A DNA stretch of 61,314 bases, the filler included, from Hausera hauseri (Eukaryota), in the NCBI GenBank assembly GCA_046269625.1. It is 9 parts of 9 records of this genome, joined end to end, with 100 filler letters (N's around TTAATTAATTAA, not from the genome) between each part and the next. Parts side by side here need not be neighbours in the genome. Positions count along the whole stretch, not along the records: positions 34,651 to 41,103 come from JBJURY010099764.1; 8 more parts are not named here. One strand, written 5' to 3'. The translations under genes were made by a program, and so were the position numbers. Of the stretch, positions 8,602 to 49,374 are shown one piece after another; positions within the stretch are counted from its first letter, which is position 1, and each line of letters opens with the position of its first letter. The notes beneath the pieces are model-generated. The model searched no databases, was not told the origin of the DNA, and saw nothing but the letters and a program-made list of their open reading frames with translations.

Positions 8602-11600
8602 TTACAATGCCACATATCCGTGAGGTAGTGTGGATTCCACCGCTCAGAATCTGGCGCTTTCATCCATCCTATCTAGGCTTTTCTTTTGCAGTGTTACAGT
8701 TTGGATGTTATGATCCCTAGATTGGATCCTCCTCATCTCTGATATGATGTGAGTCTGCTCCTGCAGAATTCTCACATAATCCTCAAAACTGATCTTCTTG
8801 GCCAATGTAACCCTTTAAACGCTTTTAGCACTCTTTTTGATCTGGCCACATATATCAATCGCGTACATCTTAGATATGAGAGCTACAAATCTCGAGATGA
8901 TGGCTCCATTCACCTCGCCTTTGAATTTTCCTAGGATTTTATTGTTGAAAATTGAATAATTTCGATGATCCTCTAGATAATCCGGTGTATCTATATGTTG
9001 GGCCAATTGGGCAAAGTCCTTAAAAATATCATCTGTATGGATTTGATAGATGAAATTAGAAGTATCCATATACATCAGCTACATGGACTTGAACTTGGGG
9101 ATCATGATGTCATAATGTAATTTATACATCAAGGTATTTGACAGATCCAATATTGCCATACCCACATATATGGGCTTATTGAATTCCAAGGATGTTTCCA
9201 GCATACGTATGCCGACCAAGTTCTTATTATATATGGTGCTTCTGTGGAAGTTAGGCTTGGCAATAAGCTTCTTTGCCCGCTTCCACTCAGAGACAAGCTC
9301 GATGTTGATCCTGTTGCGGATATTCTCCACCTTCTTGCCAGAAAGGCTGTTGTTGTAAACTTGAACTGATCGTTTTCAAATTCGTTCTTGGCATTTGTCC
9401 GAAACTTGGTATTGAGATCTATGTAGGGCTGCAGACACATGGACTGGCTGAACTGCAGAGCTCTATGGATCTTTGTGATGCGGAGTCCATGTCTAACTGC
9501 TAACCCAGATGACAGAGCAGCTTTCTATGCTTTCCATGGAGCGGAGGCCTCCTTTCAGGGAGGAAAGGCAGCTGTTGATGCCTTGCGTGGATAGAAGCAG
9601 GATATTCGATATCCACCTCCAGTATGTAGCCCGTATCTGCAGCGGGATTCAGGTCCAATATACGGATGTTTTCAGGATTCGAGACCCATTTGAAGTTATC
9701 ATATGGCAATGGTGCAATAATTGCATATCCATAAAAGTTGTTGGCATATAGGTATGATATATATTATGATTCTTTGAATGGATCATATTGGGCCGTATAC
9801 TTTTTGTTGGCCTCGCTATACCGATGCATGGCTTGGCATATTCCGTATCTAATGCCTCTCTCGATCATAAGGATAATGTCGTAATCCCTAATGATCTGCA
9901 GCCTAATACAAGTATATCTCATCACAGCTGCTCAGCTGTTCCCTGGAGCCGTAAAGAAATGAGCCGGATCCAATACATGGCTCTTCATTGTAACATCCCT
10001 GAAATTCTCAAAGACATTTTTCAGAAGCAGCACGTCCGTCTTTAGGTATACGTCGCTGTATTCCCCTATTATTCTGCAACTGAATGCATGCCAAACGTTC
10101 TGGGCATGAAAGTAGTCCTCAATATTGATATCATTTTCCATTTAATTAGGTCAAAGTTAGTGGGAACGAATCGCTTCTTCTCTTTGAGTTCTTTGGTAAG
10201 GAGGTTTTTCAATAAACTATTCAGTGAAGATGACATAAAACGGAAACTATCTGTGAAGCGAAGCCTGATTCTTCCAACATGCTTTGTGAAAATTAAGTAT
10301 TTTTCCTTACTATTGGGAATGACATAAATGTTCCTATCAATGTTGTCCAGTTCCCCAACATTGAAGTAGGGATCATATCCACTGAAATTGTGGAACACTA
10401 CAGGCACATATTTGCATGTTTTGCAACGCAGATTGCAGTTGTTGCATGCTGCACCTCGATATTTGCCTGTAAAATGGCAATTATCCCTGACTTTATGATT
10501 ATCCTTGGTGAAAGACCCTGAATAGAAATGGTTCATTGTCCAGTCCTTTGGCATGCATACAATGTGATGAGAATTCATGATATTGGTATGCCGTTGTGCT
10601 TCTATGTTTAGGAATAGGGATGTAGCTGTGAGCTGGCCTGAGAATAGCTTCAAAGTCGCAATAGATTACTGTTGGGACCTTGATCTTCTTCTTGAACTCC
10701 TTGAATTCAATATAGTCCTCCTAGGGGAATTCTGGCCTGATGCAGTAACTGTTGTTACAGTACATCTAATACTCCTTCAGCTTCTCCACAGCTAACTTGC
10801 TGCTGAAATGGGAAAGGCATCATTCGGATATTTCGATTCTTGTTGTGTCTTTCGTCATTTGGGATCTGACTAGACGCAAAATGTTCTTGATTTAAACGTA
10901 ATGTTTCTTTTCTCCATAGTCTAGCAGGAGCAGATCCCTATGATGTTCCAATTTAACATCTCATATCTGCAAGGGATAGAATTTGTACTCATCATCCAAT
11001 CCAATGATATTGATAGACGTGTTGTTTATTCGACTAAACTTCTTCACTTCATCTATGGATGGAGGAAATGTGATACACTGGAAGTCATAATTGTGCTGCA
11101 CATCCTTATATAGCCAAACTCGAACTTCTGCTTGGTTTTGATCCCGTATGATTTTACATAAATTGGCATACATGAAACACTTGTTGTCATCATTAAGGAC
11201 ATTGATGCATGCCTTTTTATTAACGATCCATTCTGGAAGCTGTATATAAGAGCTGCCCCGCATGGAAAAGTACTTGTACACATACATAAGCAGTCTCTGT
11301 ATGGTTGGCAGAGTCCATTCACTCTTCTTATTCTGGTTCTCATCGGCTTCACGGATCAGCTTCCCTTGTTCCTCATTAAGCCATTCCACTATATTGGTAT
11401 TTTTCAATATGGGTCTATTTTTAGCCTTAAAGGCCCTTTTGGATTCTTTGCCATCAACATTGTTGTATGTGTCCTCCAGTTTGATATTTACCTTAAGGGC
11501 TTTGAGATCATACATGTTGTCCTGAAGAATCCCTTCTGTTTTTTCCTTTGTGTATAAGAGGAACTCTCGGAAGATTGTTTGACCAGTTGCCTCAATAACA

Positions 11601-11620
11601 TATCTGCGGCATTTTCTCTT
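8602..11620 (-). pseudogene. Polinton/Maverick (adintovirus-type) protein-primed DNA polymerase B, degenerate
   Basis: Colinear motifs across the ORF pieces: SSYIQLPEWIVNKKACINVLNDDNKCF, CHFTGKYRGAACNNCNL, VVFHNFSGYD, DSFRFMSSSL, YLKTDVLLL, LDPAHFFTAPG, GYILEVDIEYP, KPIYVGMAILDLS, YMDTS, LGKFKGE and a terminal TLPHGY. There are many frameshifts and stops. An AATAAA follows the stop. Confidence 0.9.
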
Positions 11621-11849
11621 TAATGTTGCATCATCAATTGACCGCTGTCTTTAGCTCTCTGATTGACACGGTGAGTCTGATGTGGCCGTGCCTGATGCTG
11701 CTGCGCTTGATGGGCCTGATGTGCATGATGCGGCTATGCGTTTCAATTCTCTAAGATGTTTCGCAGCTACTGCACCAGATCCAGCAGCATAATGCGAGGC
11801 AAAATACTGCGAAGCTAAAGCATCAATATTATGTTGCTCATTATAGATG

Positions 11850-15072: not shown

Positions 15073-18000
15073 ATGAATCAAATATGTTCCTGTTTACTTG
15101 AACTTAACGAATTGCTACAACCAACAACACAACTACCAAAATGGTATCAAAGGAAAATTTCAGATCCCTACTCATCTGTTGGTGAATATACTCAAAGGCA
15201 ATTCGATATTTTAAAAGAAGATTGTATTCGTGATCTCAGAATTGCTCTAAATCTACTCCGAGAAAAATCCTGCGACTTTTCCAAGTTAAAATTTTACGAA
15301 TTCGGCGAGTCGGAAAAGAAACAGAAACTCAAACTATGGACGTATCATTCGGTAGAGTTGTCAAATTTTTCATTTCAAGTATTCGACGTTGTTTACAAAA
15401 TTCGGTTTCAATGCTGTGATGAAGTCGATTGGTCTGAAGGTAAACGATTTCGATATGGGTCTCTACTTTGTTTGAGTTGTGATAACTTTGAAAATTATTA
15501 TTTTGCTGTCGTGGCGGACAGTAATATTGACGATTTTATTAATGAAGAGGTGACCATAAGGTTCCTGAAATGTCCATTGATTAGCGATGATATGCAATCA
15601 AAATCATTTCAAATGATTGAGATACAGGCATTCTATGAGTCATATATTCACGTATTAAAACAACTGAAAAGGCTGACTGATGAAACATTCCCATTTCCCG
15701 ACTATTTCCTGAGGAACTGTACGGCACCAAAATGTTCAACATGTTACGAAGGCGAGATGTATTGTGAGGAAGACATGGACAAGTCCCAGAGAGAGGCGTA
15801 TCATGCTGCACTAGAACAAAATCTATCTGTTATCCAGGGACCACCTGGAACGGGGAAATCGACAGTTGGATTCCGCGTTGTAGAGACAATTCTCAAAGCA
15901 TACCATTATGGTGAAATGGAACAATCACCGATATTGATCACCTGCTACACGAATCAGGCATTGGATGAGTTTTTAGAAAAGGTTCTTCGCAATTCCAAAT
16001 ACTGTGAAGAAGATGATCTAATACGAATCGGAACGATGAGTGAAAGTGAAATGATAAAAAACTGCAACATTCAATATCATGTGAAAAATTGGACAAGTGA
16101 ACGCAAATTTCCTTATCATTTGGCACGAAGGTACCGAATAGTTCTCAGTAGCCTCTATACTTTAAAAGACCTTGTGAGGGATGGAAATGAAGCGGAATTT
16201 CGACGACGAATTGACGAATACAAAGGCTTATGCAAAGAATTTCGACGGTGTAAGATGGAACAACACAAATATATCATGAAATCATCAAAGGTCGTTGGTA
16301 TGACAACTACAGCATGTGCCAGATATGGAAAGGTACTTAAAGACATCGGGTTCAACGTTGTTGTAATGGAGGAAGCTGCTGAAGTATTAGAATGTCACAC
16401 CATTTGTTCATTGACATCTAAATGTAACCAGCTCGTTTTGATTGGGGATCATCAACAACTCCAGCCATCGACTTCAGTTCAAGAATTTGGAAAATTGTAC
16501 GACATGAATATATCCCTATTTGAACGTCTTATAATCAATGGGTATCCGTATAACACATTATTAAAACAACGACGGATGAGACCGGAAATATCAGTCTGCA
16601 TATCTCCAATCTACCGCAAATTGAATAATCATTCTTCTGTCAAGAATTACCCAAATGTTCCTGGCCTACGAAAAAATATTTACTTTTTCGACCACATGCA
16701 CCGTGAGAAAGTTTCATTGGAAACATCATACATCAACCACTTTGAAGTGAGATTTATTAAAGGTCTGTGTGATTTCCTGTTGGACAAACATGTCGACGGG
16801 TCCAGAATCACCATACTGACCGCATACAAAGGACAACAACAATATATTCGACAACAATTGGAAGATGATAAATACAAAGATATCACAAAAGTAACCCTAG
16901 ATGGGTATCAAGGAAAGGAGAACGATATTATTATTTTGTCCTTAGTCAGATCCAAACGAATAGGGTTTTTGAAAAATCCCCGTCGAATTTGTGTGGCACT
17001 ATCTCGAGCTCGTCATGGATTTTTTCTCATTGGCAACATGACGTTATTATCTTCCAGCTCGAAGTTGTGGCAAAACTTAAAGACGATTCTGGATGGGAAA
17101 TGTGGCCAACAGATGCCGATAATGTGCGGATTAGACAAACACGAGTGTTACATACGTAATGCTGATGATTTCTATAGGACGGATTTGTGCACGTCTATTT
17201 GTGGTGTACCCTTTAATTGCGGGAGACATAGTTGTACCCGAGTGTGTCATTCTGGTGATCATGGTATATGTACAGGTAAGGTGTTATATAGTTGCCCTAA
17301 TAATCGTCATACTATGGTGAGGCAATGTAATGAATCAGCTACAACATCATGCCATACTGAAACAATAACGGAACTGTTATGTGGCCATTCAGTTGAACAT
17401 CCATGCAATGAACTACCTCCGAAATGTCAGAAACAAGTTTATAAACCCTTAACATGTGGTCATGAGAAATTGATGTTGTGTAATGAAACGGAATGTCAAG
17501 TTAATTGTCAATCACCATGCGGTAAACTAATGGATTGTGGTCACCGATGCAGTGGTGTGTGTAATGATTGTACAGTCAATAAGACACACACACAATGCAA
17601 ACAACAAGTAGTTATCCAACTACCTTGTAAGCATCGCTATCGTCTGGAATGTTATCGACGAAAGAGTCCTATCAAATGCACATCAAAATGTTCTAAAACC
17701 CTTGCTTGTGACCATGAATGTAAAGGAAATTGCAGCACATGCACAACATCTGGCAATCATCAAGTATGCCAAGAAATCATCCAACTGCAACTACCATGCA
17801 TCCATACCATAAACATCATTTGCAGTGAGAAGCATCAAAAATACATCTGCCAGAATAAGTGTCACAAAACCCTCTTCTGTGGACACAAATGTACTTACGA
17901 ATGCATCGAATGTTTCGGTGGACGTCTCCATCGACCATGTACACAAAAATGTTTGAAATCCTTATTTTGTTCTCACCCTTGTCGACGACTATGCCATTCT

Positions 18001-18510
18001 GGAGCCTGCAGAGAATGTCAGCAGAATTGCTGGACGAGCGCTATCGCAAATTGCTGCAACTATCGCATCCCCGTTCCTCAAGCGTATTTGACACAATGCG
18101 ATTCAATGTTACGCCATAATACCCCCGTCGAATTGCGTAATAATTTACAAAATATACGGTGTATGTTATCGGATGAACTCGTCACGAAAGACAAATTAAA
18201 AAGTATCGAAAACTGTCTGAAATATTACGAAAAATTCATCCAAACTGTAATTCGCATTCCACAACTTCTCCATGATGATGTTCTAATTTACAAGACGCAT
18301 ATTTCGTTGTCCATCAAGTATATCTCCGAATGGCTAAATCCCTTCTGTAGAAATTTCCAAACAGATGATATTTCCAGTCTGGATTATGAACTGAATCGTC
18401 TTCATCATATCGGTTTGTTATGTAGCCATGTTCAATCCAGAAAAATGAAGATAACACTGAATACATTATACTACTCAATGGGATTATTGATTCCCAATAT
18501 GATGGATTAG
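15073..18510 (+). CDS. ZNFX1: NFX1-type zinc finger-containing protein 1-like (UPF1-like SF1 RNA helicase plus NF-X1 zinc fingers); probably a large terminal exon
   Basis: Intact 1145-aa frame with RYGSLLCLS, Walker A QGPPGTGKS, CYTNQALDEFLE, Walker B variant MEEAAE, LIGDHQQLQP, SLFERL, QRRMRPEI, YQGKENDIIILSLVRS and RICVALSRAR, followed by repeated CGH/CxH Cys-rich units. The ATG is directly preceded by ttttag, a possible splice acceptor. Confidence 0.93.
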   Translation: MNQICSCLLELNELLQPTTQLPKWYQRKISDPYSSVGEYTQRQFDILKEDCIRDLRIALNLLREKSCDFSKLKFYEFGESEKKQKLKLWTYHSVELSNFSFQVFDVVYKIRFQCCDEVDWSEGKRFRYGSLLCLSCDNFENYYFAVVADSNIDDFINEEVTIRFLKCPLISDDMQSKSFQMIEIQAFYESYIHVLKQLKRLTDETFPFPDYFLRNCTAPKCSTCYEGEMYCEEDMDKSQREAYHAALEQNLSVIQGPPGTGKSTVGFRVVETILKAYHYGEMEQSPILITCYTNQALDEFLEKVLRNSKYCEEDDLIRIGTMSESEMIKNCNIQYHVKNWTSERKFPYHLARRYRIVLSSLYTLKDLVRDGNEAEFRRRIDEYKGLCKEFRRCKMEQHKYIMKSSKVVGMTTTACARYGKVLKDIGFNVVVMEEAAEVLECHTICSLTSKCNQLVLIGDHQQLQPSTSVQEFGKLYDMNISLFERLIINGYPYNTLLKQRRMRPEISVCISPIYRKLNNHSSVKNYPNVPGLRKNIYFFDHMHREKVSLETSYINHFEVRFIKGLCDFLLDKHVDGSRITILTAYKGQQQYIRQQLEDDKYKDITKVTLDGYQGKENDIIILSLVRSKRIGFLKNPRRICVALSRARHGFFLIGNMTLLSSSSKLWQNLKTILDGKCGQQMPIMCGLDKHECYIRNADDFYRTDLCTSICGVPFNCGRHSCTRVCHSGDHGICTGKVLYSCPNNRHTMVRQCNESATTSCHTETITELLCGHSVEHPCNELPPKCQKQVYKPLTCGHEKLMLCNETECQVNCQSPCGKLMDCGHRCSGVCNDCTVNKTHTQCKQQVVIQLPCKHRYRLECYRRKSPIKCTSKCSKTLACDHECKGNCSTCTTSGNHQVCQEIIQLQLPCIHTINIICSEKHQKYICQNKCHKTLFCGHKCTYECIECFGGRLHRPCTQKCLKSLFCSHPCRRLCHSGACRECQQNCWTSAIANCCNYRIPVPQAYLTQCDSMLRHNTPVELRNNLQNIRCMLSDELVTKDKLKSIENCLKYYEKFIQTVIRIPQLLHDDVLIYKTHISLSIKYISEWLNPFCRNFQTDDISSLDYELNRLHHIGLLCSHVQSRKMKITLNTLYYSMGLLIPNMMD

Positions 18511-20417: not shown

Positions 20418-20514
20418 CTCCTGTGGTCCTTTTTAGGGCCACGGCCCTTGCTCAGGGCCCATCAACAAGAGCTGACGCTCGTCGATGAGGAGATTGATAA
20501 CATCAACATCAACA

Positions 20515-21330
20515 TATCGGAATCTTTTCATATTGGAACCTTTTCATGTCAGCAACTTTTCATGTGGGCAGCTTTGCATGTTGACAACTTTTAAGTAGGC
20601 AACTTTTCATGTTGCTAACTAATCATGTCGGCAACTTTCATGTCCGCATTTTGTCAAGTTTTCATATCAGCAAATTTTCATGTTGGCAACTTTTTATGTC
20701 GACATCTTTTCATGTCGACAACTTTTCATGTCGACAGTATCAATGTCGGCAAAATTTCATGTTTGTAAATTTTTATGTGGGCATCTTTTCATGTAGATAA
20801 CTTTTTGTGTCAGAAATTTTTCTTGTCTGCAATTTTCTTCTCCACAAATTTTCATGTTGGTAGCTTTTCATGTCGGTAGCTTTTAATGTCGGTAGGTTTT
20901 GACATTGGCAATTTTTCATATTGGAAATTTTCAAGTCGCCAACTTTTAATATCGGTAACATTTTATGTCGTCAACTTTCGTATTGGCAATTTTTCATGTT
21001 GGTAACTTTTCATGTCAGCAATTTTTCTTATTGGTTATGTTTCACTTGGGCAACTTTTCATGTTATCAACTTTTCTTGCTGAACATTTTCATGTCCGTAT
21101 GTTTTCATTTTGGCAAATTCTCATCTTGTAAACTTTTCATGTTGGCAAATATTCATATTGGCAGCTTTTCATATTGGCAACTCTTCATTTTGGAAATTGT
21201 TCATGTCGACAACATTTCATATTGGAAATTGTTCGTGATGGCAACTTTCAAAACGGCAAATTTTCATGTTGACAACTTTTCATGTAGGAAGTTGTTCATG
21301 TTGGCATCTTTCTCTATTGCTTTGGCAAAC
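20515..21330. repeat. 16-bp minisatellite, about 50 degenerate copies
   Basis: A unit close to CAACTTTTCATGTTGG is repeated head to tail with no unique spacers. Confidence 0.9.
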
Positions 21331-27952: not shown

Positions 27953-27972
27953 GAATCCCACTTCTGACACCA
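27953..27972 (-). promoter_or_regulatory. tRNA-Leu primer-binding site in antisense orientation
   Basis: The minus strand reads ...CATTACA-AAT-TGGTGTCAGAAGTGGGATTC, complementary to the 3' end (including CCA) of eukaryotic tRNA-Leu and preceded by an LTR-like CA end. Confidence 0.75.
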
Positions 27973-28253
27973 ATTTGTAATGGACATAACAGAAATCAGT
28001 GATGCAGCAGAACACATTGCTATTCTACCGGCAACTTTAGAGAAAGAACGTGTTATGGAATTTATAATTTATTCTTGGTTCGTTTTTCTTTGTAATTTGT
28101 TCTTGTTGAATGTCATATCGACAGTCAACGCTAATTTGCTGAGGGGAAATTCGGATATCCCGCATTTTGCTGCCCGCCCCGCTGAGGCGGAAATCCCGAC
28201 CGCCAACTTTGCGCTGGTCGGTCGGGTGGCACCTTCGACGTCGGTCCCACATC

Positions 28254-29572
28254 ATGCCCTCAAGCGCACTCCTGCCCCCATTTCCGTTTTCTTTTTTTAT
28301 AACAGACACACCCTCCACACAACACACCCACATATTCCCACGCTTCAGACCCGCATTTCTTCTTTCCTTGGTTCCTCAGATTTCTATCTCACTCTAAACG
28401 GCGCTATTATACACATTAATGAAACTTTACCTTCCTTTTCCAATCACGCTTCCTTCAACGTATATCTCCGTATCCGTGGTGGAATGAATTATCCACCAAT
28501 CACTGACAACACGGATACAACCACCACAAAAAAGCCAATACCCATTCTCTACCACACCAGACCAAATCACCCACCTATTTTAACCGACGCAAACTCTTCC
28601 AACAAAAACCCAGTTCATACTTCTACTCATTGCACCGACTACTTCATACATAATGAAAAGTCCAGTAAAACGTGGCTTCACTTCCACCAACTCTGGCTAC
28701 AGTCTAATGGTATCACAGACTCCTTATCTAAAGCCCATAGCTTACTCTAGCTTCTCCCAAATTCGACAAAAGCCTCAATCCATAACTTACTTGACATCTT
28801 CCAACACCCTGACTCTTATATCCAATTATTTGACGCTGTATTAAAACAGACCGAACCTTTCATTGACTCCATAATGCAACGTTTCTTTAACGAAAATGCA
28901 CTGGGCACACAAAAACACTTACGAACCTTATTAGCACACTTGCGTACTCTTGGAGTAACTAGGGAGCACAACCCAGATCTTCTACGCCATTATTTTATGA
29001 ATGCCCTACCTATCCAAATACGGGCCTTTTTTATCGTGGTGGAAGACTCCACGCCGCTTGAAAAATTGGCCGAATTGACCGATAGGACATACGATGTCCT
29101 TCACATAAATACGCAACCAGTAGTTTTGGCAGCAGTTGCCGCTAACGACATTCAAACAACTAACACGTCCATAGAACAACAGCTTAACCAGTTACGGGCT
29201 GAAAATATTGCATTGCAGGCAACTATCAACAACATAAATAATAAATTAAATGAATTGTCTTTGGCCCGACGAGGGGTTTTTGCCGCCGACCATACTCGTT
29301 CCACGTCACGAAACCGCTCACCATCGCCTGCGCGTTCGTTGATCTGCTATTACCACAGCAGATTTAACACTAATGCTCAGAAATGCTGCCTGGGTTGCCA
29401 ATATTATAGCCAGAAAATTTTCTCGAGTGCCGTTGTTTGCATTCATCACGCGAAATTCAAAAATCAAGCACGTAAATGTATTCCTGGCTGTACCTTCAAA
29501 TCCAATACGAACGACGGACGTACTGCCTTCACTTCTCACAGTTGTCCCAGTTCATCTTTCCAAAAAAACTAA
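28254..29572 (+). pseudogene. gag with N-terminal ubiquitin-like domain and two CHCC zinc knuckles (copy B)
   Basis: The Ubl ends VYLRIRGG|M (28460-28486). The capsid region contains LEKLAELTDR, followed by RSTSRNRSPS, CYYHSRF..NAQKC..C and CIHHAKF..QARKCIPGC. There is a probable frameshift at the T7 run 28292-28298 and a stop at 28748-28750. Confidence 0.85.
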
Positions 29573-34650: not shown

Positions 34651-35481
34651 AAGCATAATAAACTGGATTAATAAACAAATCTTCAAAGTGCGTGGGAAAT
34701 ATTGAATCCTTCCATAAAACGTCCAAATATACGAGAAGATAAAAACAGAATTATTCTATCTCTACCATATTCGGATTCAACAAATGAACTAGAGCAAAAT
34801 TTCCATAATTTATATATTTATAATTTTATACTAGTTTAATCCTCAAGAAAAGTCAGACTTTTTCAAAAAAATCAAAAACCCAAACTATTATACTGTTGTC
34901 TCTCTCGACAATTCAAAGGTCAAAGTTTTTACCAATAACCCCATTTAGTTATTTTTCTTGATGAAATATAATAATTATAAATCCTCAAATTGGACGAAGT
35001 TTTATTTAGCCCTAGTGCAGCTACTGTTGCCAGTATCTCTGCCCTCAGCTTATAATTTTATTTGTTCCAAATCCGGCAACGTAATATACGTAACTTCGGT
35101 TTATATATATATAAATAACAATCTAAAATACACTGCACCGATAAACCTTAAAATCCAGAACAATAAAGAACCTCGTAATATTTTACAAAACGACAACTTA
35201 CGAATAATAAATTACGTCACATTAACCCAAACAAACAATAATAATAATACCTCGTCACAATGGCACATGAAATCAAAAAAACAAAATTCAATTGTGTCTA
35301 TGCAAAATTTCGTTTATCTATATATACCCATTTTGTGGAAAACAAATGTCATGAGACTTAGAAAATCGAGCAGATAACAAATTAAAATATCAGGTAACAA
35401 AAAATATCAGGTGATATCATTTTCAATTTTCATCGTCAACAAAATTGTTTGACCGAGTTTCTAACATACGCCGGGACGAAG

Positions 35482-37037
35482 TTAACGGCTCACCACTGGC
35501 GGAGAATTACAATACAATGGATCATCTAAATCCACGAAGGTAGAGGATGACAAAGGAAGGCTAGAAACTGGTTCTTTGTCCAAGCAAAAATGATGCCAAT
35601 GACATTGCGGAATACTGACAGACGGGGTCTTCGCTGGTAGCCATAATTTGTCAAGTTTGTCAGTCTTGCGGAGATGTTGAAAATTATTGAAGACATCCTG
35701 GGCCATATTGGCGGCCGAGAGGGTACCAGCGGGTCGAAGTTTGTTGATACGGCAGACGTCAGGGTAGGTAATCCAACAAAATGAACCATGTTGTAGTTCA
35801 ATAACACCCAGAATATGTTCCATTGGAATAGAAAATACATAAATAACTTAACGTTGAATGAAACCAATACCTTGCCATAAGTAGCCCGTAAAATATGACG
35901 ATAGACTATTTCAAAGTCAGGCGCTGTGTCAAGATCGCTAAGTAAGATTCCATGACGGTGAGATTCACAATTCGTAATTCGGACAAGTGGATTGACAAGG
36001 GTATCATAACGGAGAAGTGGGAGATCATGAACAAGTTCGTATAATGTGACTGCGATACAGACAGATACAGATCCAGACAATGCAATGGAATAACCAATAA
36101 ATAAAAAATCCTCGTCGACTGGGTGTCGTGAAACGCGCATGTAAGAACGGTCAAAATATTCGGAAGAAGGTATGGGTAAAAAGTCAAAATTGGGCAAGCT
36201 TCGTTTTCCATCGAGATGTGATTCCCAATAGTCGAGCCACGGTCGTCTGTCGTTATACTCCATTTCGATATAAATGGTAGTTGGAACGGACGTAATAAGG
36301 ATTTGGGGGTTGTGATCAATCCAAATTGAAAACATCACCAAAAGCGTTTTGTGCTGGGGGATTTCAATACTATACTCTACATGGGTTATTCCATTCAAAT
36401 AGAATACTAATGAAACGTCGGCAACTTATAACATAAATGTGCTGGGGTATTCAGGAAAGTTCGATTTTTTACTCAACGTTGCAATAAAATTCCGTAAGGT
36501 GAGACGTGTCATTTGATTAAAACGGTGAATTAGAATTAGACGGTTTTGAATACTATTACCCTTGTACTTGTTAGGAATCGAATAAATTGAATCATAGAAG
36601 ATAGATGAATGTGATCGTACTTCAGCAGAAATAGATTTATACACTGAGCGAGACCGTTCAATTTCACGAATTATGTCAGATGCTATCTTAGTATTTCGAT
36701 TGAAAATGTATATTGAAGACCGACTAGCTAATTGGGAACTTTGGATAGAACAGTCAATTAAACGGATTCCAAAGTTAGAAGTGGTGGCCTCAGCGAATGT
36801 CTCATAGGACGAAGGATAAAACTGGGATTTAGTCAGTTCGAAGTCTTGACGGCATCGATCATTAGAAGAGAATGCAAAAACTGACTGAGCTGTATTTGAT
36901 GTACTTGGATATATTTCTAAAGGAAGGTGAGAAACAAAAAAACACGCCACAGCAATGTGCCTAGCTGCCGCAGCTATAAAAAGAATTGGAAAGTATGCCA
37001 CAGCAATATGCCTAGCTGCCGCAGCTGGCTGTCGTTG
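35482..37037 (-). pseudogene. Unknown accessory ORF region at the 3' end of the Gypsy element
   Basis: ORFs 36426-37001 and 35526-36398 share one frame and are separated only by TAA 36426-36428. The same frame continues from the TM-tail ORF across TGA 37038-37040. A further shift into 35482-35823 is possible. Confidence 0.55.
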
Positions 37038-38556
37038 TCATAAAATAGTTTCATATGTAAGGGGATTTTTAGCATGATTTCGACAATCACGTGAATATAA
37101 AACATTATTAATTACATCGTAATCAGTCGAGTTGTCATACAGATTAGGAGAATCCATTTTCAGAAGTAGTGATCTACATTTACGATAGAAAAGAACAAGT
37201 ACAAACATCAAAATCCCCATAAAAACACTAGGTCCAATAATTAAGCAAAACAGAAAAGGCCAGTTAGTTTGAATAGATGTAATCAACGAAGTTGAAAAAA
37301 GTAAGGGAGTGCTAGTATAATATAATTTTTTTTTGAAGGAGTATCGGAACATTAAGTAACTTAGGATTGGTTTTTGTCCGTGAGGTAGCTAAGTGAATTA
37401 TATGATCCCATTGTCGATTCAATGTTGTCGAATAGATAGTGCAGATTACTTGTCCCGCATAAGGGCGTGGACAAACCTGTGTTCCAAAAATAGTATATAA
37501 AATGCACAAAGGTAATGAATTATGGATACATTTTAAAATATGCGGCCAAGTAGTATTTGTAGAAAAAGTAATATGTGCAGATAGAATGGTAATCTGAACT
37601 TCATTCCAGGGGTCCATAGGTATTGCTGTAGATGTAGTAGAACTATATCGTAATGTATGAGGAATTGTCACACTTGTTGATTGTGGCAAAGGTGAACTAG
37701 TATTCTCGAGGCGTGATATGAATAATGTAACATTTAATAATGGAAAATTGTTAAAACCGGGAATACTGAATATAAGATGGATAAAATTATGAACCTTCAA
37801 GGATATATTCCTCTGACTCATTAGGGGACGAGTATGTATATACATCATACCGTTTTCCATAGATCGAAGTAGTTGCACTTTTTCATCAAGGCCAAGAATT
37901 TTTATGGCTTTATGGCATGGGCCGATTTGAATAAAACAAACTGAATTTTTGGTAGTGATAGACACCCAGGGGATTAAATATGTTTCTTTTAATTTATCAC
38001 TTTGAGTTGTAGATATCAGTTCCCAAAGATAAGGTCTTCGGAGATTCAGACTTTCTGGTGGAGACATTAGCCACGTAAATTTTAAATACTGACTCGTTGT
38101 ATTAAGACGGAACGATATTTGTAGCCAGTTTGACGTATTATAAGGTAGAAACAAATATTGTCCATTAGTGGCATTACTTTGTGATTCACCAGCTATGTTT
38201 GTTGTAATTGCATAATTTTTGGCTATTGGTACGACCATTATTCTAAGTTGATTATTTATCTCTTGCCAATAAATGAAATAAGGAATTCTAGAGCTGTCCT
38301 GGAACATTGGAACTTCAAATATTTCTGAATCAAAAGTTTTAATTTGTGTTCCATTAGCCCATTCTTCAATTGTTTGTTGTAGTGGATGCAGGAATGAAAG
38401 TCGATATGCACACTGCCCATAGGGTAGTTCAATTTTACACACTGAAAATATACCTCCAAAAGGATCTTTTACTGAAAACAGCCGTATTACAATTAAATTT
38501 TTAGCGTGGGACACAAATGTATAGAATCGTACATCTTTATTTTGTTTACTCCAACC
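37038..38556 (-). CDS. env-like type I membrane glycoprotein in frame with pol (one TAG, one homopolymer frameshift)
   Basis: A signal-like segment ends pol. The ectodomain has eight N-X-S/T sequons and a Ser/Thr-rich stretch. After a shift at the A9 run (37326-37334) come a TM helix WPFLFCLIIGPSVFMGILMFVLVLFY, basic RKCR, and a tail with YDVI and YETI. Confidence 0.65.
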
Positions 38557-41103
38557 CTACTGAATACTAAAACCATTGATTAAATCAACAAAACATGTCC
38601 AAAGAAGTACTGTATATAAAAGTGTGATGCTTGTATTCCCTCCTGTAGCGAGTGGCGCAGGTTCGTCGGTTAATAGTTTGTTTGACACTGAGGTTTGATT
38701 ATTTAGAATTGGATGGTCCTTCGGGACCTTCTTACATCGTTTAGCTGCTATTGCTACGATTTCTTCATGTTTTCCAATTTTCTTTTTAATGAAAATATTA
38801 TTTTCTGTGACCCTTTCAACTTTGTGTGGTCCTTTCCACGGACGTGCCAATTTTGGGGACTTGCCCTTTTTTACAGTTGGTTCAAATAGCATTATATAAT
38901 CGCCTTCTTGGATTGTATGAGGTCTAGCTTTTTTATCATGCTGAGTTTTATATTGTTTTTGATAATCTAAGGTTAATGATTGAGCAAGTGCCCAGGCTTT
39001 AGTTAATCGTTCTTTGAGGTAATTAACATAATTGGGCTCGTAAGTCATTAATGATTCATCAGGAATCATTTCTAAATCTCGTGGTAATAATGGGTCTCTT
39101 CCGTACATTAAGAAGAAGGGTGGTTGTTGTGTAGCGGAATGCGGTGCTGTTCTTAAAGCGAACATACAAGCGGGAATATATAAATCCCAATCATCTTGTC
39201 TATCATTCGTAACTGTTGCTAACATTGACAGTAATGTACCATTAAGTTTTTCGACCATGCCATCACAACATGGGTGATAAGCTGCTGTTTTAAGTTTGTA
39301 CATAGAGAACAACCTGCATACTTCAGAGAACATTTTATTGACAAATTCTGTACCTTGGTCTGTTAAAATTTTTCTTGGGGCTCCGTACCGAAATACAATT
39401 TCTTCTACAAACAGTGCTGCTACCGAGAATGCCGATTTATCTGCCATAGGAAAAGCTTCAGGAAATCTTGTCAAATAATCAACGAAAACTAGAATATATT
39501 GATTTCCACTCTGAGTTTTTGGAAGCGGACCAACAATGTCCATAGCTGTAAATTCCATAGGACTTGCTGGAGGTTGGATTGGATGTAAGGGGGGTTTACA
39601 TTTATAGCCTCTATTTCTTCTAGTTGCACAAACTGTACAACTGTCACACCAATTTTGAATATCTTTCTGTAGGGTACGCCAATAGTATTTCCGCTTTATC
39701 CTACCAAGGGTTTTTTTAAAAGCTGGGTGCCCTGCAAGAATTCCGTCGTGTTCCTGTTTCATCACTTCACTTTGTCGACATTTCGGTAATACTACTAATT
39801 GACGATTATTGTACCAATATCGTAATAACTCAGATGATATAGTATACTTTGCACCTTGACTTATTAGATGTTGTATTAACTCTTTATCGGTAGTATTAAT
39901 GTGTCGTGTTCTAACGAATTCTCGAATGATTCTTAATTCTGAATCCTGTTCTTGCTGATTAATCAAGTTTTGAATCTCGTTATCTGTTAAATCCACTGAC
40001 ACAGTTTGGAATGTTTCTAATTTAGATATGTGAATTGATTCACATTCTTTTTCTAATTGAAGTAATTCCTTCTCGGTTGCGGGTCTGCGTGATAAACCAT
40101 CGGCGTTTCTATTTACTTTTCCAGGTCGATAAAATATAGTCAAATCATACATTTGTAGTTTCAATTGCCATCGTTTTAATCGTGAGAATGGATCTTTAGC
40201 TTTTCGAAATTCTAACGGCGCATGGTCTGTAAATACCTTTATTTCGTGACCCCAAATGTAATATCTAAATTTTTCAACAGCAAAGACAATTGCCAACATT
40301 TCTTTCTCAATAACAGCATATTTTTGTTCAGTATCGGACAAGGTTTTGCTAGCATAAGCAATCACATATTCAAGTTTCTCTCCACATGGGATTTGATATA
40401 GTACAGCTCCTAATCCAGTTTTACACGCATCAGCAAATATTATAAATGGTAAAGAGAAGTCAGGAAAACGTAATATTGGAGCACTGGTTAATAATTTTTT
40501 AACGTATCAAAGGCCTCTTGGGTTTCTATTGTCCAAAGGAATGGAGTTCCTTCTTTCGTTAATGCAAATAACGGGGCTGCAATAATGCTGAAGCCTGGTA
40601 TGTGCTTTCTAAAATAGCTACTTGTGCCCAAAAATGCGCGTACTTTTGTAACATTTTTCGGTATTGGCCATGCTGTAATCGCTGATACCTTACTTTGATC
40701 AACTTCAATTCCTTTTGCTGAAACGATGTGACCCAAAAAGTTACTTGTTGCTTTGCGAATACACATTTCTGTAATTTTAATTTAAAACCCCATATTTTCA
40801 GTAAATCTAAAACCTTTTCAATGTCCAATAAATGATCATCTAAGGTTCGTGAGAATATAACTATATCATCTATATAGACCATTGTATGTGTACAATTGAT
40901 GAGCATTGCCTCCAGTGCTTCTTGAAATGTTGATGGAGCATTACATAACCCAAAGGGCATTACATTAAATTCATATTGACCTTTACCAGTAGAAAACGCT
41001 GTTTTATATTTATCTTCTTCAGCAATAGGAACTTGCCAATAACCACTTTGAAGATCCATTGTGGTGAAATATTTTGAGTTCCTAAGTTTATCGAAGATAT
41101 CCT
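38557..41103 (-). mobile_element. Second Ty3/Gypsy family pol (RT 3' part, RNase H, integrase)
   Basis: Motifs DLQSGYWQV, VMPFGLCNAPSTFQ, YIDD, ADACKTGLGAVL, IAYASKTL, TDHAPL, NADGLSR, HHCC (HDGILAGH..CTVC), DIVGPL, TDQG and GPH. Frameshifts occur near 40750 and 40495. Confidence 0.95.
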
Positions 41104-41203: not shown

Positions 41204-41331
41204 CTATGTACATAAACTTAATCGTGGACTACAATATCCAAAACACGTAAGACATAATACAATAACAAATAATTTATAACGCAATATTTCACAAAATTAT
41301 TTACATGAACTTAAAATGTGGTAGCACTACA
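41204..41331 (-). repeat. 3' LTR (partial)
   Basis: 128 bp matching 49247-49374 with 7 mismatches (counted by hand). It starts TGTAGTG directly after the PPT. Confidence 0.9.
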
Positions 41332-44400: not shown

Positions 44401-45715
44401 TATGATGTCTATCAGTGGTGTAGTTATTGTTAGTTTTATAGTTACAGCCGGAAATACAATTCCGAATATTAGATCCTTTTTTTGCATTATAGATACAAAC
44501 TGTTATCTAAGTGTAGATTCAGCGAATAATATCTACACCCTAAACAACATTTATTTGCTTTATTATTAAATTTGTTGTGCTAATAATATATAAATAACCG
44601 CGTTGGTGACGGTGTTCGATTTCTGGAAAGAGAACGCGTTCGACGAGGCGAGGAAGCATTCCATCGATGTAAGTAAAAGTCATTTGGCTTATCATTAATG
44701 GTGTTGATTGTATGTTATAGTGCAACATTTTCGGCGCGTAATTGGTTCAATTGGTGCTCGACAGATATACGTCGTTGATTGTCATCGGTCGTAATAGCGG
44801 CTGATATGATGGGTTGTGATTGTACTTGTAAGACTTTGTGTGCTTTATCGACCAATTCAGCTAGCTTATCTAAGGCTGTAGAATCTTCAACTACGATAAG
44901 TAAAGCCCTAATTTAAATTGGTAAGGCGTTAAGGAAATATCGTCGAAGTAAATCCGGGTTGTGTTCCTTGGTCACTCCTATAGTACGTAAGTGAGCCAAT
45001 GAGGTACGTAGAAAATCACTAGGTTTTTGTGTCCCCATTGCATTTTCCTTAAAGAAGCGTTGTACTATCGAATAAATAGATGGTTCTGTCAGTTTTTATA
45101 CAGTATTGAACAATTGCGTATAAGGGTCAGGATGTTGAAAAATGTCCAATAAGTTACGGATTGAGACCTTTATGGAGTTTGATAGAAGATAGAGTAGATT
45201 ATGGGCTTTGGATAACGAGTCGATAATGCCGTTGGATTGTAACCAGAGTTGATGGAAGTGGAGCCAAGTATTGCTAGAATTCTCATTGTTTATAAAGTAT
45301 TCAAAGCAATGTGCAGTGTAATTGTAGGATATTTGTGAAAAGAGTTAGTATCGGTTGAAGTAGATGAATGGTTTGATTTGGGATAGTACAGAATGGATTT
45401 GGGTTTTATGGTAACCTTATATGTTATGTCACTGGTTGGTGAAGAAATCATACCGTCGCGGATTCTAAGGTAGATGTGAATACAGAGAAAGCGTTGTGAG
45501 AACATGATGTGTGGGAGGTCAGTTAGAATGAAACCATTGTCAGTCAGATTGAAATCGCTGAAGGTGGTGATATTATGGATGAGGACATATATTTGTAATG
45601 TGTCGGTACGTTGTATAACGTATACGGTCTGTACTAGGGTATTATTAACAAAAAGGTAAAATGAAAACGGTGGTGATAGACGGCAAATCGGGTATTGGTA
45701 TCTCGACGTGGTCAT
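41415..45715 (-). pseudogene. Degenerate Ubl-gag-pol, with integrase core partly deleted
   Basis: Motifs YLRIRDG|M, CISGC...QQN* (gag end), FLIDTGAA, RT and RNase H remnants, and LDIVGPL..MMDRSSRWP. The sequence then jumps to the tail KSVTFS...QRLVRIKTS*. Confidence 0.9.
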
Positions 45716-45719
45716 TCGA

Positions 45720-48420
45720 AGTTAAGAGGGTTGCTATTGCTTTTGAAGAATCTAACCGATAATTTTGACTTGACATTCCATCTGAAACGGATCCCGAGAT
45801 ATTTCGTTGGAATCCTTTCGTTATTCTGCCTCCATAGATAAACAACTTCAATATTTTGTGAATCCAATAACAAGCACAACGATATCGCCATCGTAAAATC
45901 TGCACGAAGGAGCCTGCTTCAAAAGGAATTTCTTTATATATCAGGAACCAGTCGTATGATTTTAGTTCCTCTGTAAAACGCAATGGAAATGTACAGTTGT
46001 TTGGTTCGAGAGGCAAAGATCTACCACCGAAAAGATTAAAGTAGTTTTCTATTTTACTAAAATTTCCAGAGGGTTAAGATAAAAATCTGGTCGATCTGTG
46101 GACTCCCTATGGTTAGTGAATCTATTGCGCATATAACTGATAAAAGTCGACAATGGCCAGAAGAGAACGAATTTTGTCCATAGTCAGAGACTCTAATCAG
46201 ATACTCGCTGTATTCAGAAAGATAAATCGGGCCGACGTTGCAATAATGTGCCTTAATTCCACCTCGTCTCATTACAGATTCGTCAAATTCCATAGATGAT
46301 TCGGTGTTGGGTTTTGTAGATTTGACAAGACAAGGCACGGGTGATGTGTAATTAACAATGCCACAAGATGGCTGGACCATTTTATTAATTTCTGTGGCCA
46401 TCATCAAGTTCACGAATTCGTACGAGTTTCAAATACTTCAGAACATAAAAACACAGTTTACAAATTTCCAATAAATGATCCTGATCGATGTTGGGTAATA
46501 TGTGTTGAAACTGTGGGCTTGGGAGAAACCACCCTGCAATGATTAACATCGCATTGTAAATGTACTGGCGAGAAATCACATTGACTTCATCGTGAAATTG
46601 TTTAGTAAAGAATTTCAACAAATTTAAATAGTCCAATTGCGCCTGGAAATTGGCATCAGTGCCGAAATGGTGAATTCTGTTCAAGACAAATGTCACAATG
46701 TCCGGCAGAACATTTCTAATTGTTGAACTAACAATGGACTGCTTGTTTGCGTGTTGTCGACAATGCGTCAATTCCGTGAAACACAACTGGACAATTTTCA
46801 GAAACAATACGATCTTCTGAGATTCGTCAACCAGTAAACTGTCATCCGTTCGAAATTCTTTGAATATATTTGTCAGAAAAAGCGCGAACGACTCGTCATC
46901 GATACGCAAATTCATCAGAGAAAATAACAAAGGAACGGTAAATTCTGAATAATTCCATTAAATTATTCATTTGGTGAACCGGTAGCGAACTTTGCCGTAA
47001 ACAAATCCAACAAAACATTATCGGAAAAAATCACTTTGTTATTACCGAGTAAATAATGCAGACTAATCAAATAATCGGAAATCAACGACAACTATACATC
47101 GTGATTGTTCAGAAATCCAATCAACAGAAACGACGTGACACAAAAACGATATTTCACGTCCAACGTTTCTAAATTCCGTTGACAGAATCTCGCGCCGACT
47201 AAATGGATCTTGGAAAAGGCCCCGGTGAAAAACAAGAGTGCCTGGGAATTTCAGGAAATCGTAGAGATCGTATTGAAAAATTCAGAGATCGGTTTCATAG
47301 TTCGATGACGAGAAGAATCGAGTGAAAAAATCGTCGAGAAACCGAACAAGAGATTCATTGGCGATAAATCCGTTGATCGATGTAATGGATTCGTGAGAAA
47401 AGTAGAAAACGGAATTTTGAGAAGTTCGTTAAGAGATTCTTGTATGAGTTCGATTGTAACGTAATTGGTAATTGAAGAAATTGCTGAAATCCCCATTTCA
47501 AAATCACCGTACTGCCATGCATCAGCGCTCTTTTAACTATAATAATCGGCCAATGGAATAAAAGACTTCCAGATGAGTAGTTGCCTTTCAGCCGGTGAAA
47601 TTTAGATAAAACAGGTAGAATAACGTGCGTTTGTTTCCCTTCTAATGACTAAATTAAATCCAAAATATCCGTGATATCATTATCAGACAAAGACAATGGG
47701 ATAAATTCGTTTAAAGCCACCTCAAGACGTTGGTCTCCATTTAACTTACACGTATGAGGAATTCTGTTCAACCAATACATAGCGAGTTTTCGATTCACGG
47801 ACAGCGATGATATAAGATTGTTCATTATTCCTATCCAAAGGTCGTTGGACAGAAGTGCAGCCCGATCAATTACAGCATTAATGGAAGCGGCTGATAACAG
47901 ACGGATAAAATATTCATAACAGTTGACTTTAATTTTTCAACGTAATCTGTGTACCAATATCAGTAAGTCATTTTGTGTAATTTTATTCATTGATTGAATA
48001 AGAAACAGTAAACATTTTTCTTTAATCGCTAAATTATCCGTTGATCCACATATTTCCCTAAAAGATTAGTGTCAGTCATATTTTCCAGCAAATAGGGATA
48101 ATTGATCGAAATAAACACTAGAACATCCAATACTATTAAACTTTCTGATTCACTAACTATCAACACCAGTTTCTGAGTAATGTCTTTTCGCTTGATGGTA
48201 TGATTACTATATTGAATTATTAAAAATTTAATAGAAATATGAGTACATAAATTACACTTCATATTCAATAAAATATGGCACAATTCTGATTCAACATCAG
48301 GAGGAATAGATTCGAAGTCCTTTAAATTTATCTCATTAAAATTCTTTTCTGAATATTTAAAAACTTTGTCAAATATCATCTCAGCCCTGTATTTACTGTC
48401 TGTTTCTTTAATACAAAGAT
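45720..48420 (-). pseudogene. Host-like alpha-helical protein remnant inside the element (weak RPAP1-like resemblance)
   Basis: A chain of same-strand ORFs (48029-48379, 47251-47496, 46385-46930, 46057-46413, 45645-46016) links through single stops or frameshifts. It is Leu/Ile-rich and has no TE motifs. Identity is uncertain. Confidence 0.45.
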
Positions 48421-48661: not shown

Positions 48662-49374
48662 TGTAGTTTGGTTGTCGTGTATGTATGACGTTTGTTGATT
48701 CTTGCAAATGATTAATAACATCATAAGATATAAAGTTAATAACCAGGTTTTATTGGTGCATTGAAATGTTACTTGTTGAATTTCTTTGCACCAACAACAT
48801 GTTGTTATATTTTGGTAATACCATATATTTGAAACACATTGGAAATAATAATATGCGCTTTCTTTTCTCTGTTGCCATTAAATTTCTAAAATAAAAAGTC
48901 GATTTAAGATTATGAATATTTATTGAGAACGTTCGGTTTAACATTTAACATTTGATCTAAGTTATAGCGTATTTTAAAAAATATATTAACATAACATTAC
49001 GGGATATTGAATCCGGTTTTAGTCTATGAACCCCCTTACAGCTGTTTCATGTCACAATTTCCATTTTAATAATCAAAATTATCAAGCCTGAAATTTACGT
49101 GGATTATAAACAGATAAGCATAATGGTGGGAGAGCATTGCCATAAAATACAACATGTAAATTTCTAAAATAACTCTAACATTAGTTACAACCATAAAAAT
49201 ATGGAACAACTGCACTACACTTTATCTTAAAAAAGCTTTAAAAATGCTATGTACATAAACTTAATCGTGGACTACAATATCCAAAACATGTAAGACATAA
49301 TACAATAATAAATAATTTATAACACAATATTTCACAAAATTCTCTACATGAACTTAAAATGTGGTGGCATTACA
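48662..49374 (-). repeat. 5' LTR (713 bp)
   Basis: TGTAAT...ACTACA termini, internal AATAAA, an adjacent PBS, and a match to 41204-41331. Confidence 0.8.

Follow-up and report, generated by a model that had tools for sequence, protein, structure and literature searches.

As PMC13524379 (Chary and Hayashi) describes them, errantiviruses and other env-carrying Ty3/gypsy elements have pol followed by an open reading frame (ORF) for a protein with a signal, an ectodomain and a transmembrane (TM) segment, and their envelope proteins (Env) have been sorted by homology search into two classes, F-type (furin site, fusion peptide, helical stalk) and gB-type (cysteine bridges). Because that survey used known Envs as queries, it could have missed a third type. 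Here we describe an element of invertebrate gypsy type with the same order of parts, found in a 61,314-nt stretch of DNA from Hausera hauseri (assembly GCA_046269625.1; the whole stretch is called the window below). The window consists of small contigs joined by N-linkers, and the element lies on the minus strand of the contig at 34651–41103 (JBJURY010099764.1). It departs from errantiviruses in that its env-like gene continues the integrase frame and a fourth ORF (ORF4) comes after it.

Other described systems share single traits with this locus. Atlas virus, of the Belpaoviridae, has Env in one frame with Pol and is expressed as a Gag-Pol-Env polyprotein, but combines a BEL/Pao pol with a class II, phlebovirus-like Gc (PMC9094657), where the present element has a Ty3/gypsy pol and a Cys-poor ectodomain. 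SIRE1 and the Sireviruses, plant Ty1/copia elements, have one stop between pol and an env-like ORF and palindromic repeats upstream of the extra ORF; readthrough has been shown there (PMC2829016), whereas here it is a candidate. In the bdelloid rotifer elements Juno and Vesta, as presented by Rodriguez et al. (PMC5408684), an ORF for a DEDD-superfamily exonuclease likewise lies 3′ of pol. Their ORF3, of the RNase D-like DEDDy kind, keeps its catalytic residues intact (DEED) and takes the place of env, and ORF3s are described as typically made from spliced messages; the protein found here would instead be DEDDh or RNase T-like, lacks the catalytic acids, has a 240-aa unmatched N-terminal part and follows the env-like gene. 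A DEDD fold without canonical catalytic residues and with RNA binding is known from Maelstrom and EXD1-type proteins (PMC5408684), which are host PIWI-interacting RNA factors and gave no sequence match in a Pfam scan, so that the likeness is one of functional analogy. Cer1 of C. elegans carries, in the env position, a gypsy 3′ ORF for CERV, a non-envelope accessory protein made from spliced RNA that exports genomic RNA (PMC10309623). CERV, which is likened here by description rather than sequence, is not known to have a DEDD fold, and in the present element a glycoprotein intervenes. A gypsy element that pairs an unassigned env with a DEDDh ORF was not found in the literature searched; supplements such as the element tables of PMC13524379 may hold relatives.

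We read the locus as the 3′ two-thirds of a decayed copy belonging to a multi-copy Ty3/gypsy family whose genes run pol – env-like – ORF4, and put the probability of this explanation as a whole at about 0.55. Pol is followed by two extra genes, a membrane glycoprotein and a separate ORF4, rather than being one extended Pol. Reverse transcriptase (RT), RNase H and integrase follow in gypsy order with gypsy-type domains (RT_RNaseH, 2.9e-34; Integrase_H2C2, 5.4e-18; rve, 1e-10), and the best PDB match of pol is the Ty3 Gag-Pol (E=1.4e-43). The copy is missing gag, the 5′ long terminal repeat (LTR) and the start of RT, inside which the contig ends. Since pol has two frame breaks of its own, the copy is decayed throughout. 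The surrounding contigs are rich in mobile elements.

Membership of the extension in a repeated family is indicated by two public runs, X1 and X2, that contain matching contigs, whose summed depth is not a copy number. X1 gave 1074 contig records of mixed identity over all 30 of 30 bins of the stretch, with summed depths of 52–117 in the ectodomain bins, 26–213 across the spacer and ORF4 and 3.9 at the contig's distal end, and X2 covers part of the env/ORF4 region with divergent contigs. So many divergent X1 contigs across env and ORF4 are at odds with a single host gene. When the TM–tail–ORF4 frame was searched against 1.84 billion protein representatives, three matches came back, two of them real relatives (P0003 and P0004, each a singleton from a short ENA contig); the third, P0005, a bacterial repeat protein at E=9e-4, was discarded as a chance match. 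An initial annotation of this locus had assigned the extension to the element, and the contigs and the two relatives uphold it. Two further features of the X1 contigs were seen. One contig, of depth 100, runs from integrase into the env ectodomain across 38381–39091 with about 709 nt missing (the short side has 40 letters), and is possibly an abundant deletion derivative or a related family. At 35488, the end of ORF4, the local depth reaches 211 from 13 contigs against about 50 for the bin, possibly the sign of a conserved cis-element or of the edge of an LTR.

The env-like glycoprotein

The frame for RNase H and integrase, read from 40506 to 38560, ends in ...ITLLYTVLLWTCFVDLINGFSIQ. Translation bore out the annotated close of integrase in a signal-like segment and the TAG, followed by GGT, behind it. 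The segment is the sole hydrophobic 19-mer of at least 1.6 in the 649-aa frame (1.71) and is organised like a normal signal, small residues occupying the inferred cleavage site. Beyond the TAG, 414 codons are open, 407 of them before a run of nine A residues (A9); an ectodomain of about 415 aa had been annotated as sequon-rich, and its length stands, while its enrichment proves modest (8 sequons where 4.3 are expected, p=0.04). Past the A9 run the TM helix and the tail are encoded in the next frame, which reaches TGA-CAA at 37040–37038 and goes on through 203 codons to a TAA at 36428–36426 and another 299 codons to 35529, so that the annotated frame shift, TM helix, tyrosine-motif tail, TGA-CAA and some 490 further codons with one TAA were all recovered. 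The open frames are improbable by chance: runs of such length have probabilities of 2e-13, 6e-7 and 6e-10 at the contig's base composition. That the first extra gene occupies the env position and encodes a type I membrane glycoprotein, continuous in frame with integrase, is supported.

P0004 is 43% identical over 96 residues of TM helix and tail and ends at the same last residue, with TYETVL for TYETIL; the motifs TxYDVI and ET[IV]L, applied as regular expressions, are common to both. Because P0004 stops at the same residue, the TGA is old and a true gene end, not decay. P0004 is a gene-caller product on a 506-nt contig, which excludes decay and does not strictly exclude fixed readthrough. We take the last four residues to fit a class I PDZ-binding end.

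By sequence, the ectodomain shows the signature of neither F-type nor gB or chuvirus-like Envs, in agreement with the initial annotation. RxxR is absent from its 407 aa, as is any internal hydrophobic 19-mer of at least 1.6, so that the furin site and hydrophobic fusion peptide of F-type Envs were not found there. Nor was a gB or chuvirus-like pattern: the protein (P0001) has 8 Cys and no Pfam family at E<=10. In the same Pfam scan Monjiviricetes_fusion was detected at 2.3e-08 in another fragment of the window, a broken gB/chuvirus-type glycoprotein on a separate contig (49373–50584, minus strand), and the library is therefore able to see this class. No PDB or Pfam match to a phlebovirus-like class II protein, as in Belpaoviridae, was found, and pol is Ty3-like, not BEL/Pao. 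Residues ~281–320 are rich in Ser, Thr and Pro, and an internal repeat was looked for in the ectodomain and not found.

Searches with the env-like protein gave no match in Pfam, NCBIfam, PDB or the protein collection, no usable match in the ESM Atlas, and in PHROGs one family of unknown function at E=0.23. Homologues were absent from the protein collection among entries of 254–809 aa and 30–136 aa, other lengths not having been searched, and relatives were not found in viral contigs and metagenome contigs; one further search gave three distant loci at 28–39% identity. A single-sequence AlphaFold model of the ectodomain was mostly beta strand, with a predicted local distance difference test score (pLDDT) of 41.2 that rose to 50–60 over the first 110 residues. 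Fold searches with this low-confidence model returned generic beta-sheet matches only, none at E<=0.001, the best (Z 6.1) being an unrelated chain; such matches speak neither for nor against any one fold, be it the four-domain head and helical stalk of F-type Envs or class II. From the model, the ectodomain is probably beta-rich. The label env follows position and topology, and a role in attachment or signalling would be as possible as one in fusion, a caution that PMC5718144 also voices over calling ORF3s env.

ORF4 and the spacer before it

Between the TGA and ORF4 lies a spacer that holds a duplicated 18-nt motif, each copy followed by a U-rich tract, with a local X1 depth peak of 213 at the duplication. 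The spacer also holds the top-ranked of 69 YAG sites in 35400–38800 (3.4 kb), together with those of ranks 3 and 5. Its translation reaches Kyte-Doolittle (KD) windows of 1.6–2.05 and had been annotated as a second hydrophobic segment. In P0003 the translated 18-nt motif is exact (10/10) against 60% identity in the coding part, the spacer has fewer residues and aligns poorly apart from the motif, and a Met stands at the start of the conserved part, where the window's copy has none. A conserved motif, a spacer of variable length and the Met of P0003 together indicate a cis-element and a separate gene, not a second signal peptide; what had been read as a hydrophobic segment is non-coding spacer, translated, upstream of that Met.

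Part of ORF4 was less obscure than the unknown module initially annotated. The N-terminal half (240 aa) indeed matched nothing in Pfam or PDB, but the second half has a DEDDh exonuclease fold. With the 299-aa frame, 7 of 7 NCBIfam rows were DEDD exonucleases (best E=0.013), the top three ESM clusters were RNase_T at scores of 0.89–0.90, followed by arenavirus nucleoprotein, and PHROGs gave an exonuclease match at 0.033. Exonuclease was also the annotation of all three phage records and of 12 of the 25 plasmid matches listed. By hhalign, with a profile from nine sequences, the DEDDh region scored 97.7–98.2%. The columns for the ExoI D/E and the ExoII D hold G, S and F in this alignment, and H-A-x-x-D is absent from both downstream frames; judged from these residues, the exonuclease is probably inactive. 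A PDB sequence search with ORF4 was empty, the protein collection held no ORF4 homologues among entries of 341–1085 aa, and matches to the gsiD permease were discarded as hydrophobic bias. Sequons number 0 in the pieces of 154, 85 and 111 aa, and the single-sequence AlphaFold model of ORF4 has a pLDDT of 30.6.

The 3′ end of ORF4 can be read in two overlapping frames. The frame followed so far stops at 35526, and the annotated limit of 35482 is the stop of the second, overlapping frame (35847–35485). Of the two, the second matches the profile a little better (its score was reached by 20 of 500 shuffles, that of the other by 85), and one X1 contig (depth 11.4 of 47) has another length at the point where this second frame starts. 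Within ORF4 every contig over the TAA differs inside the codon (X1, 22.5 of 22.5 in two contigs; X2, 2.56 of 2.56 in one), so the TAA looks private to this copy. P0003 ends near it, and its last 14 residues match the window's third frame in length and stop, which we read as a frame break of the P0003 copy itself. The features of the element are collected in Table 1.

Table 1. Features along the element, from the pol end of the contig to its 3′ region
Feature	Position	Strand	Basis
Reverse transcriptase fragment, cut at contig end, frame break near its 3′ end	40562..41101	-	Pfam RVT_1 E=1.6e-27
RNase H, integrase (H2C2, rve, GPY/F-like end) and linker, 649 open codons	38560..40506	-	Pfam
Signal-peptide-like segment, in frame with integrase, no ATG upstream in this copy	38572..38628	-	hydrophobicity; function inferred
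TAG, four codons past inferred signal cleavage site, then GGT	38557..38559	-	translation
Env-like ectodomain, 407 aa	37336..38556	-	translation
A9 run where frame breaks	37326..37334	-	X1 length difference
Transmembrane helix	37188..37244	-	KD 2.65; kept in P0004
Cytoplasmic tail with TxYDVI, terminal TYET[IV]L, conserved stop	37038..37187	-	P0004 comparison
18-nt motif twice, palindromic core, 51 nt apart; putative cis-element	36958..37026 (copies 37009-37026, 36958-36975)	-	2 matches vs 0.02 expected
Pyrimidine tract and AG, putative ORF4 splice acceptor	36917..36944	-	rank 1/69 YAG sites, 91% pyrimidine
ORF4 N-terminal half, no family match, TAA-interrupted	36171..36890	-	P0003 60% identical over 173 aa
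DEDDh 3′-5′ exonuclease fold, ExoI-ExoII half	35841..36116	-	profile libraries, HMM, hhalign
ORF4 C-terminal part, two overlapping open frames (stops 35526 and 35482)	35482..35847	-	translation, profile fit
AT-rich non-coding 3′ region, possible degraded 3′ LTR and flank	34651..35481	-	TATA-like 35107; AATAAA 35062 and 35006

Weighing the readings

The interruptions were compared one by one with sibling contigs and relatives. The initial annotation had offered decay as one account of the breaks; this holds for the TAA and probably for the A9 run, and fails for the TGA, which P0004 conserves. At the A9 run, where sequence reads had been named as a check, one X1 contig (depth 13.1 of 34) has a different length. 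The two pol breaks, absent from the initial annotation, show length differences in only about a fifth of the X1 depth (23 of 99 and 31 of 148); since these must be private, the share at A9 is what a private break gives, and the shift is probably private or an assembly error. For the TAG we lean towards private decay, hold a fixed readthrough stop to be possible though less likely, and regard a splice-related stop as unlikely.

Several points weigh against our reading. No LTR pair and no polypurine tract could be demonstrated on the contig, purine runs of at least 9 nt being absent from the 3′ region, and none of the retrieved outside sequences bridges env and ORF4. Both structure models are poor (pLDDT 31 and 41), the loss of catalytic residues is seen in one decayed copy, and the use of the 36917 acceptor in splicing ORF4 is a prediction from the sequence. 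Neither frame matched the ExoIII half, with 20 and 85 of 500 shuffles scoring as high. Our own hidden Markov model (HMM), from 10 matched sequences, gave 50 bits on the DEDDh region, a score reached in 0 of 500 shuffles, while no other frame of the contig exceeded 1.2 bits. The sequences behind the DEDDh profile were themselves BLAST matches of the query, which inflates this figure, and the E-values from single databases are weak (0.009–0.07); the fold is upheld despite the inflated profile scores because independent libraries agree. Lastly, the TAG lies at most about 25 codons from the pol/env border, a position with a likelihood of a few per cent for a random nonsense change, and no difference falls on it among the 40 listed of 1281 differences in X1 and X2. 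The conserved TGA likewise has none among them, and the private TAA has one. Both the position of the TAG and this patterning, like the TGA and unlike the TAA, lean to a fixed stop.

These last points would favour an account with the same two extra genes in which the TAG is fixed and Env is made from pol by UAG readthrough, tuning it below Pol. The UAG-G context at the border fits, and plant SIRE1 offers a precedent, as cited in PMC2829016. We nevertheless find this account doubtful: RNA folding gave no stimulatory structure after either stop (z=0.21 against shuffles for the 100 nt downstream of the TAG, z=-1.1 and no better than shuffled for the TGA, pseudoknots being outside the model), the signal segment precedes the stop, and very little Env would be expected from readthrough on top of Pol levels. 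CARYYA, a readthrough signal motif, was not found at the TAG either. The TAG might also be fixed as the end of an intron (CAGTAG|G), an upstream exon giving start and signal, with the apparent signal being a translated T-rich tract. A tandem YAG does finish at the stop, and the spacer before ORF4 shows that such DNA can translate as hydrophobic too; as an acceptor, though, the site ranks only 28–29 of 69 with 55% pyrimidine, and the normal signal layout with its small residues at the inferred cleavage site makes this account improbable.

The initial annotation had proposed a single Pol-Env-X product, either a decayed polyprotein with a second internal signal or one completed by readthrough of UGA-C. 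The env tail and ORF4 do share a frame, TGA-CAA belongs to the leaky contexts and the spacer reaches the KD values given above, but the end that P0004 shares speaks against both forms, as does the lack of stimulatory structure after the TGA against UGA-C readthrough. The terminal motif resembles a free C-terminus, the spacer consists of duplicated DNA and a U-rich tract and has another length in P0003 with its own Met, and ORF4, with no sequons and a nucleic-acid-binding fold, is unlike a lumenal domain. We consider such a product improbable. Very improbable is an unrelated host gene or nested insertion beside a truncated element: no LTR could be delimited and no outside sequence bridges the parts, yet the frame runs seamlessly from integrase, introns are absent, the A+T content of env equals that of pol, and divergent contigs are many in X1 and present in part in X2.

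Expression, neighbouring elements and significance

On our preferred reading of pol followed by two extra genes, the glycoprotein would be the C-terminal portion of the Pol polyprotein, from which signal peptidase would free it at the internal signal, a cleavage that is itself inferred, and it would perhaps also come from a spliced RNA through the AG at 38643; the TAG would be a nonsense change that followed insertion. The tyrosine motifs and PDZ-type end of the tail may sort the protein to a membrane domain used for the budding of particles or their transfer from cell to cell. ORF4 would be a separate cytoplasmic or nuclear accessory protein from a subgenomic RNA, produced from the acceptor at 36917 or from an internal promoter at the duplicated palindrome. 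Its inactive nuclease fold would most likely bind RNA, serving genome export or packaging or blunting small-RNA silencing. A bolder version, which we consider rather unlikely, is that an animal Ty3/gypsy lineage has gained a third kind of envelope, unrelated to F, gB and class II, with a signalling-type tail (tyrosines like those of immunoreceptor tyrosine-based inhibitory or switch motifs, ITIM/ITSM, and a PDZ-binding end) and possibly UAG readthrough behind its own signal peptide, plus a DEDDh pseudonuclease directed against host RNA silencing or sensing. On that version it would be a 'complex' retrotransposon, comparable to the complex retroviruses.

The window holds other elements. In another gypsy family (27968–28747, plus strand, and 45293–45721, minus strand) the frame upstream of gag has ...LRIRGG|M..., with LRIRDG|M in the second copy. 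LRIRGG is like the C-terminus of ubiquitin, and a ubiquitin-like leader on Gag is possible; the frame had no Pfam match at E<=10. A 128-nt direct repeat, 95% identical and 8 kb apart (41204–41331 and 49247–49374), surrounds a second degraded gypsy element and probably represents its LTR ends. A repeat-rich contig carries an intronless 1145-aa ZNFX1-like helicase (15073–18510, plus strand; Pfam ZNFX1, AAA_11, AAA_12). At 9132–11650 (minus strand) lie Polinton-like remnants of a protein-primed type B DNA polymerase region, including a stretch similar to endonuclease VII, and a tandem array of 31 copies with a period of ~16 nt occupies 20506–21304.

Judged from one decayed copy and two short protein relatives, the element may be an env-carrying gypsy with an envelope unlike the known classes. 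If true, an env-positioned glycoprotein outside F and gB would mean that homology searches miss envelope classes, and it would matter for the question of how frequently retrotransposons acquire an extracellular step. The adjoining DEDDh pseudonuclease, if true, would extend exonuclease capture beyond rotifers and offer a testable candidate for a transposon-encoded RNA-binding accessory factor.

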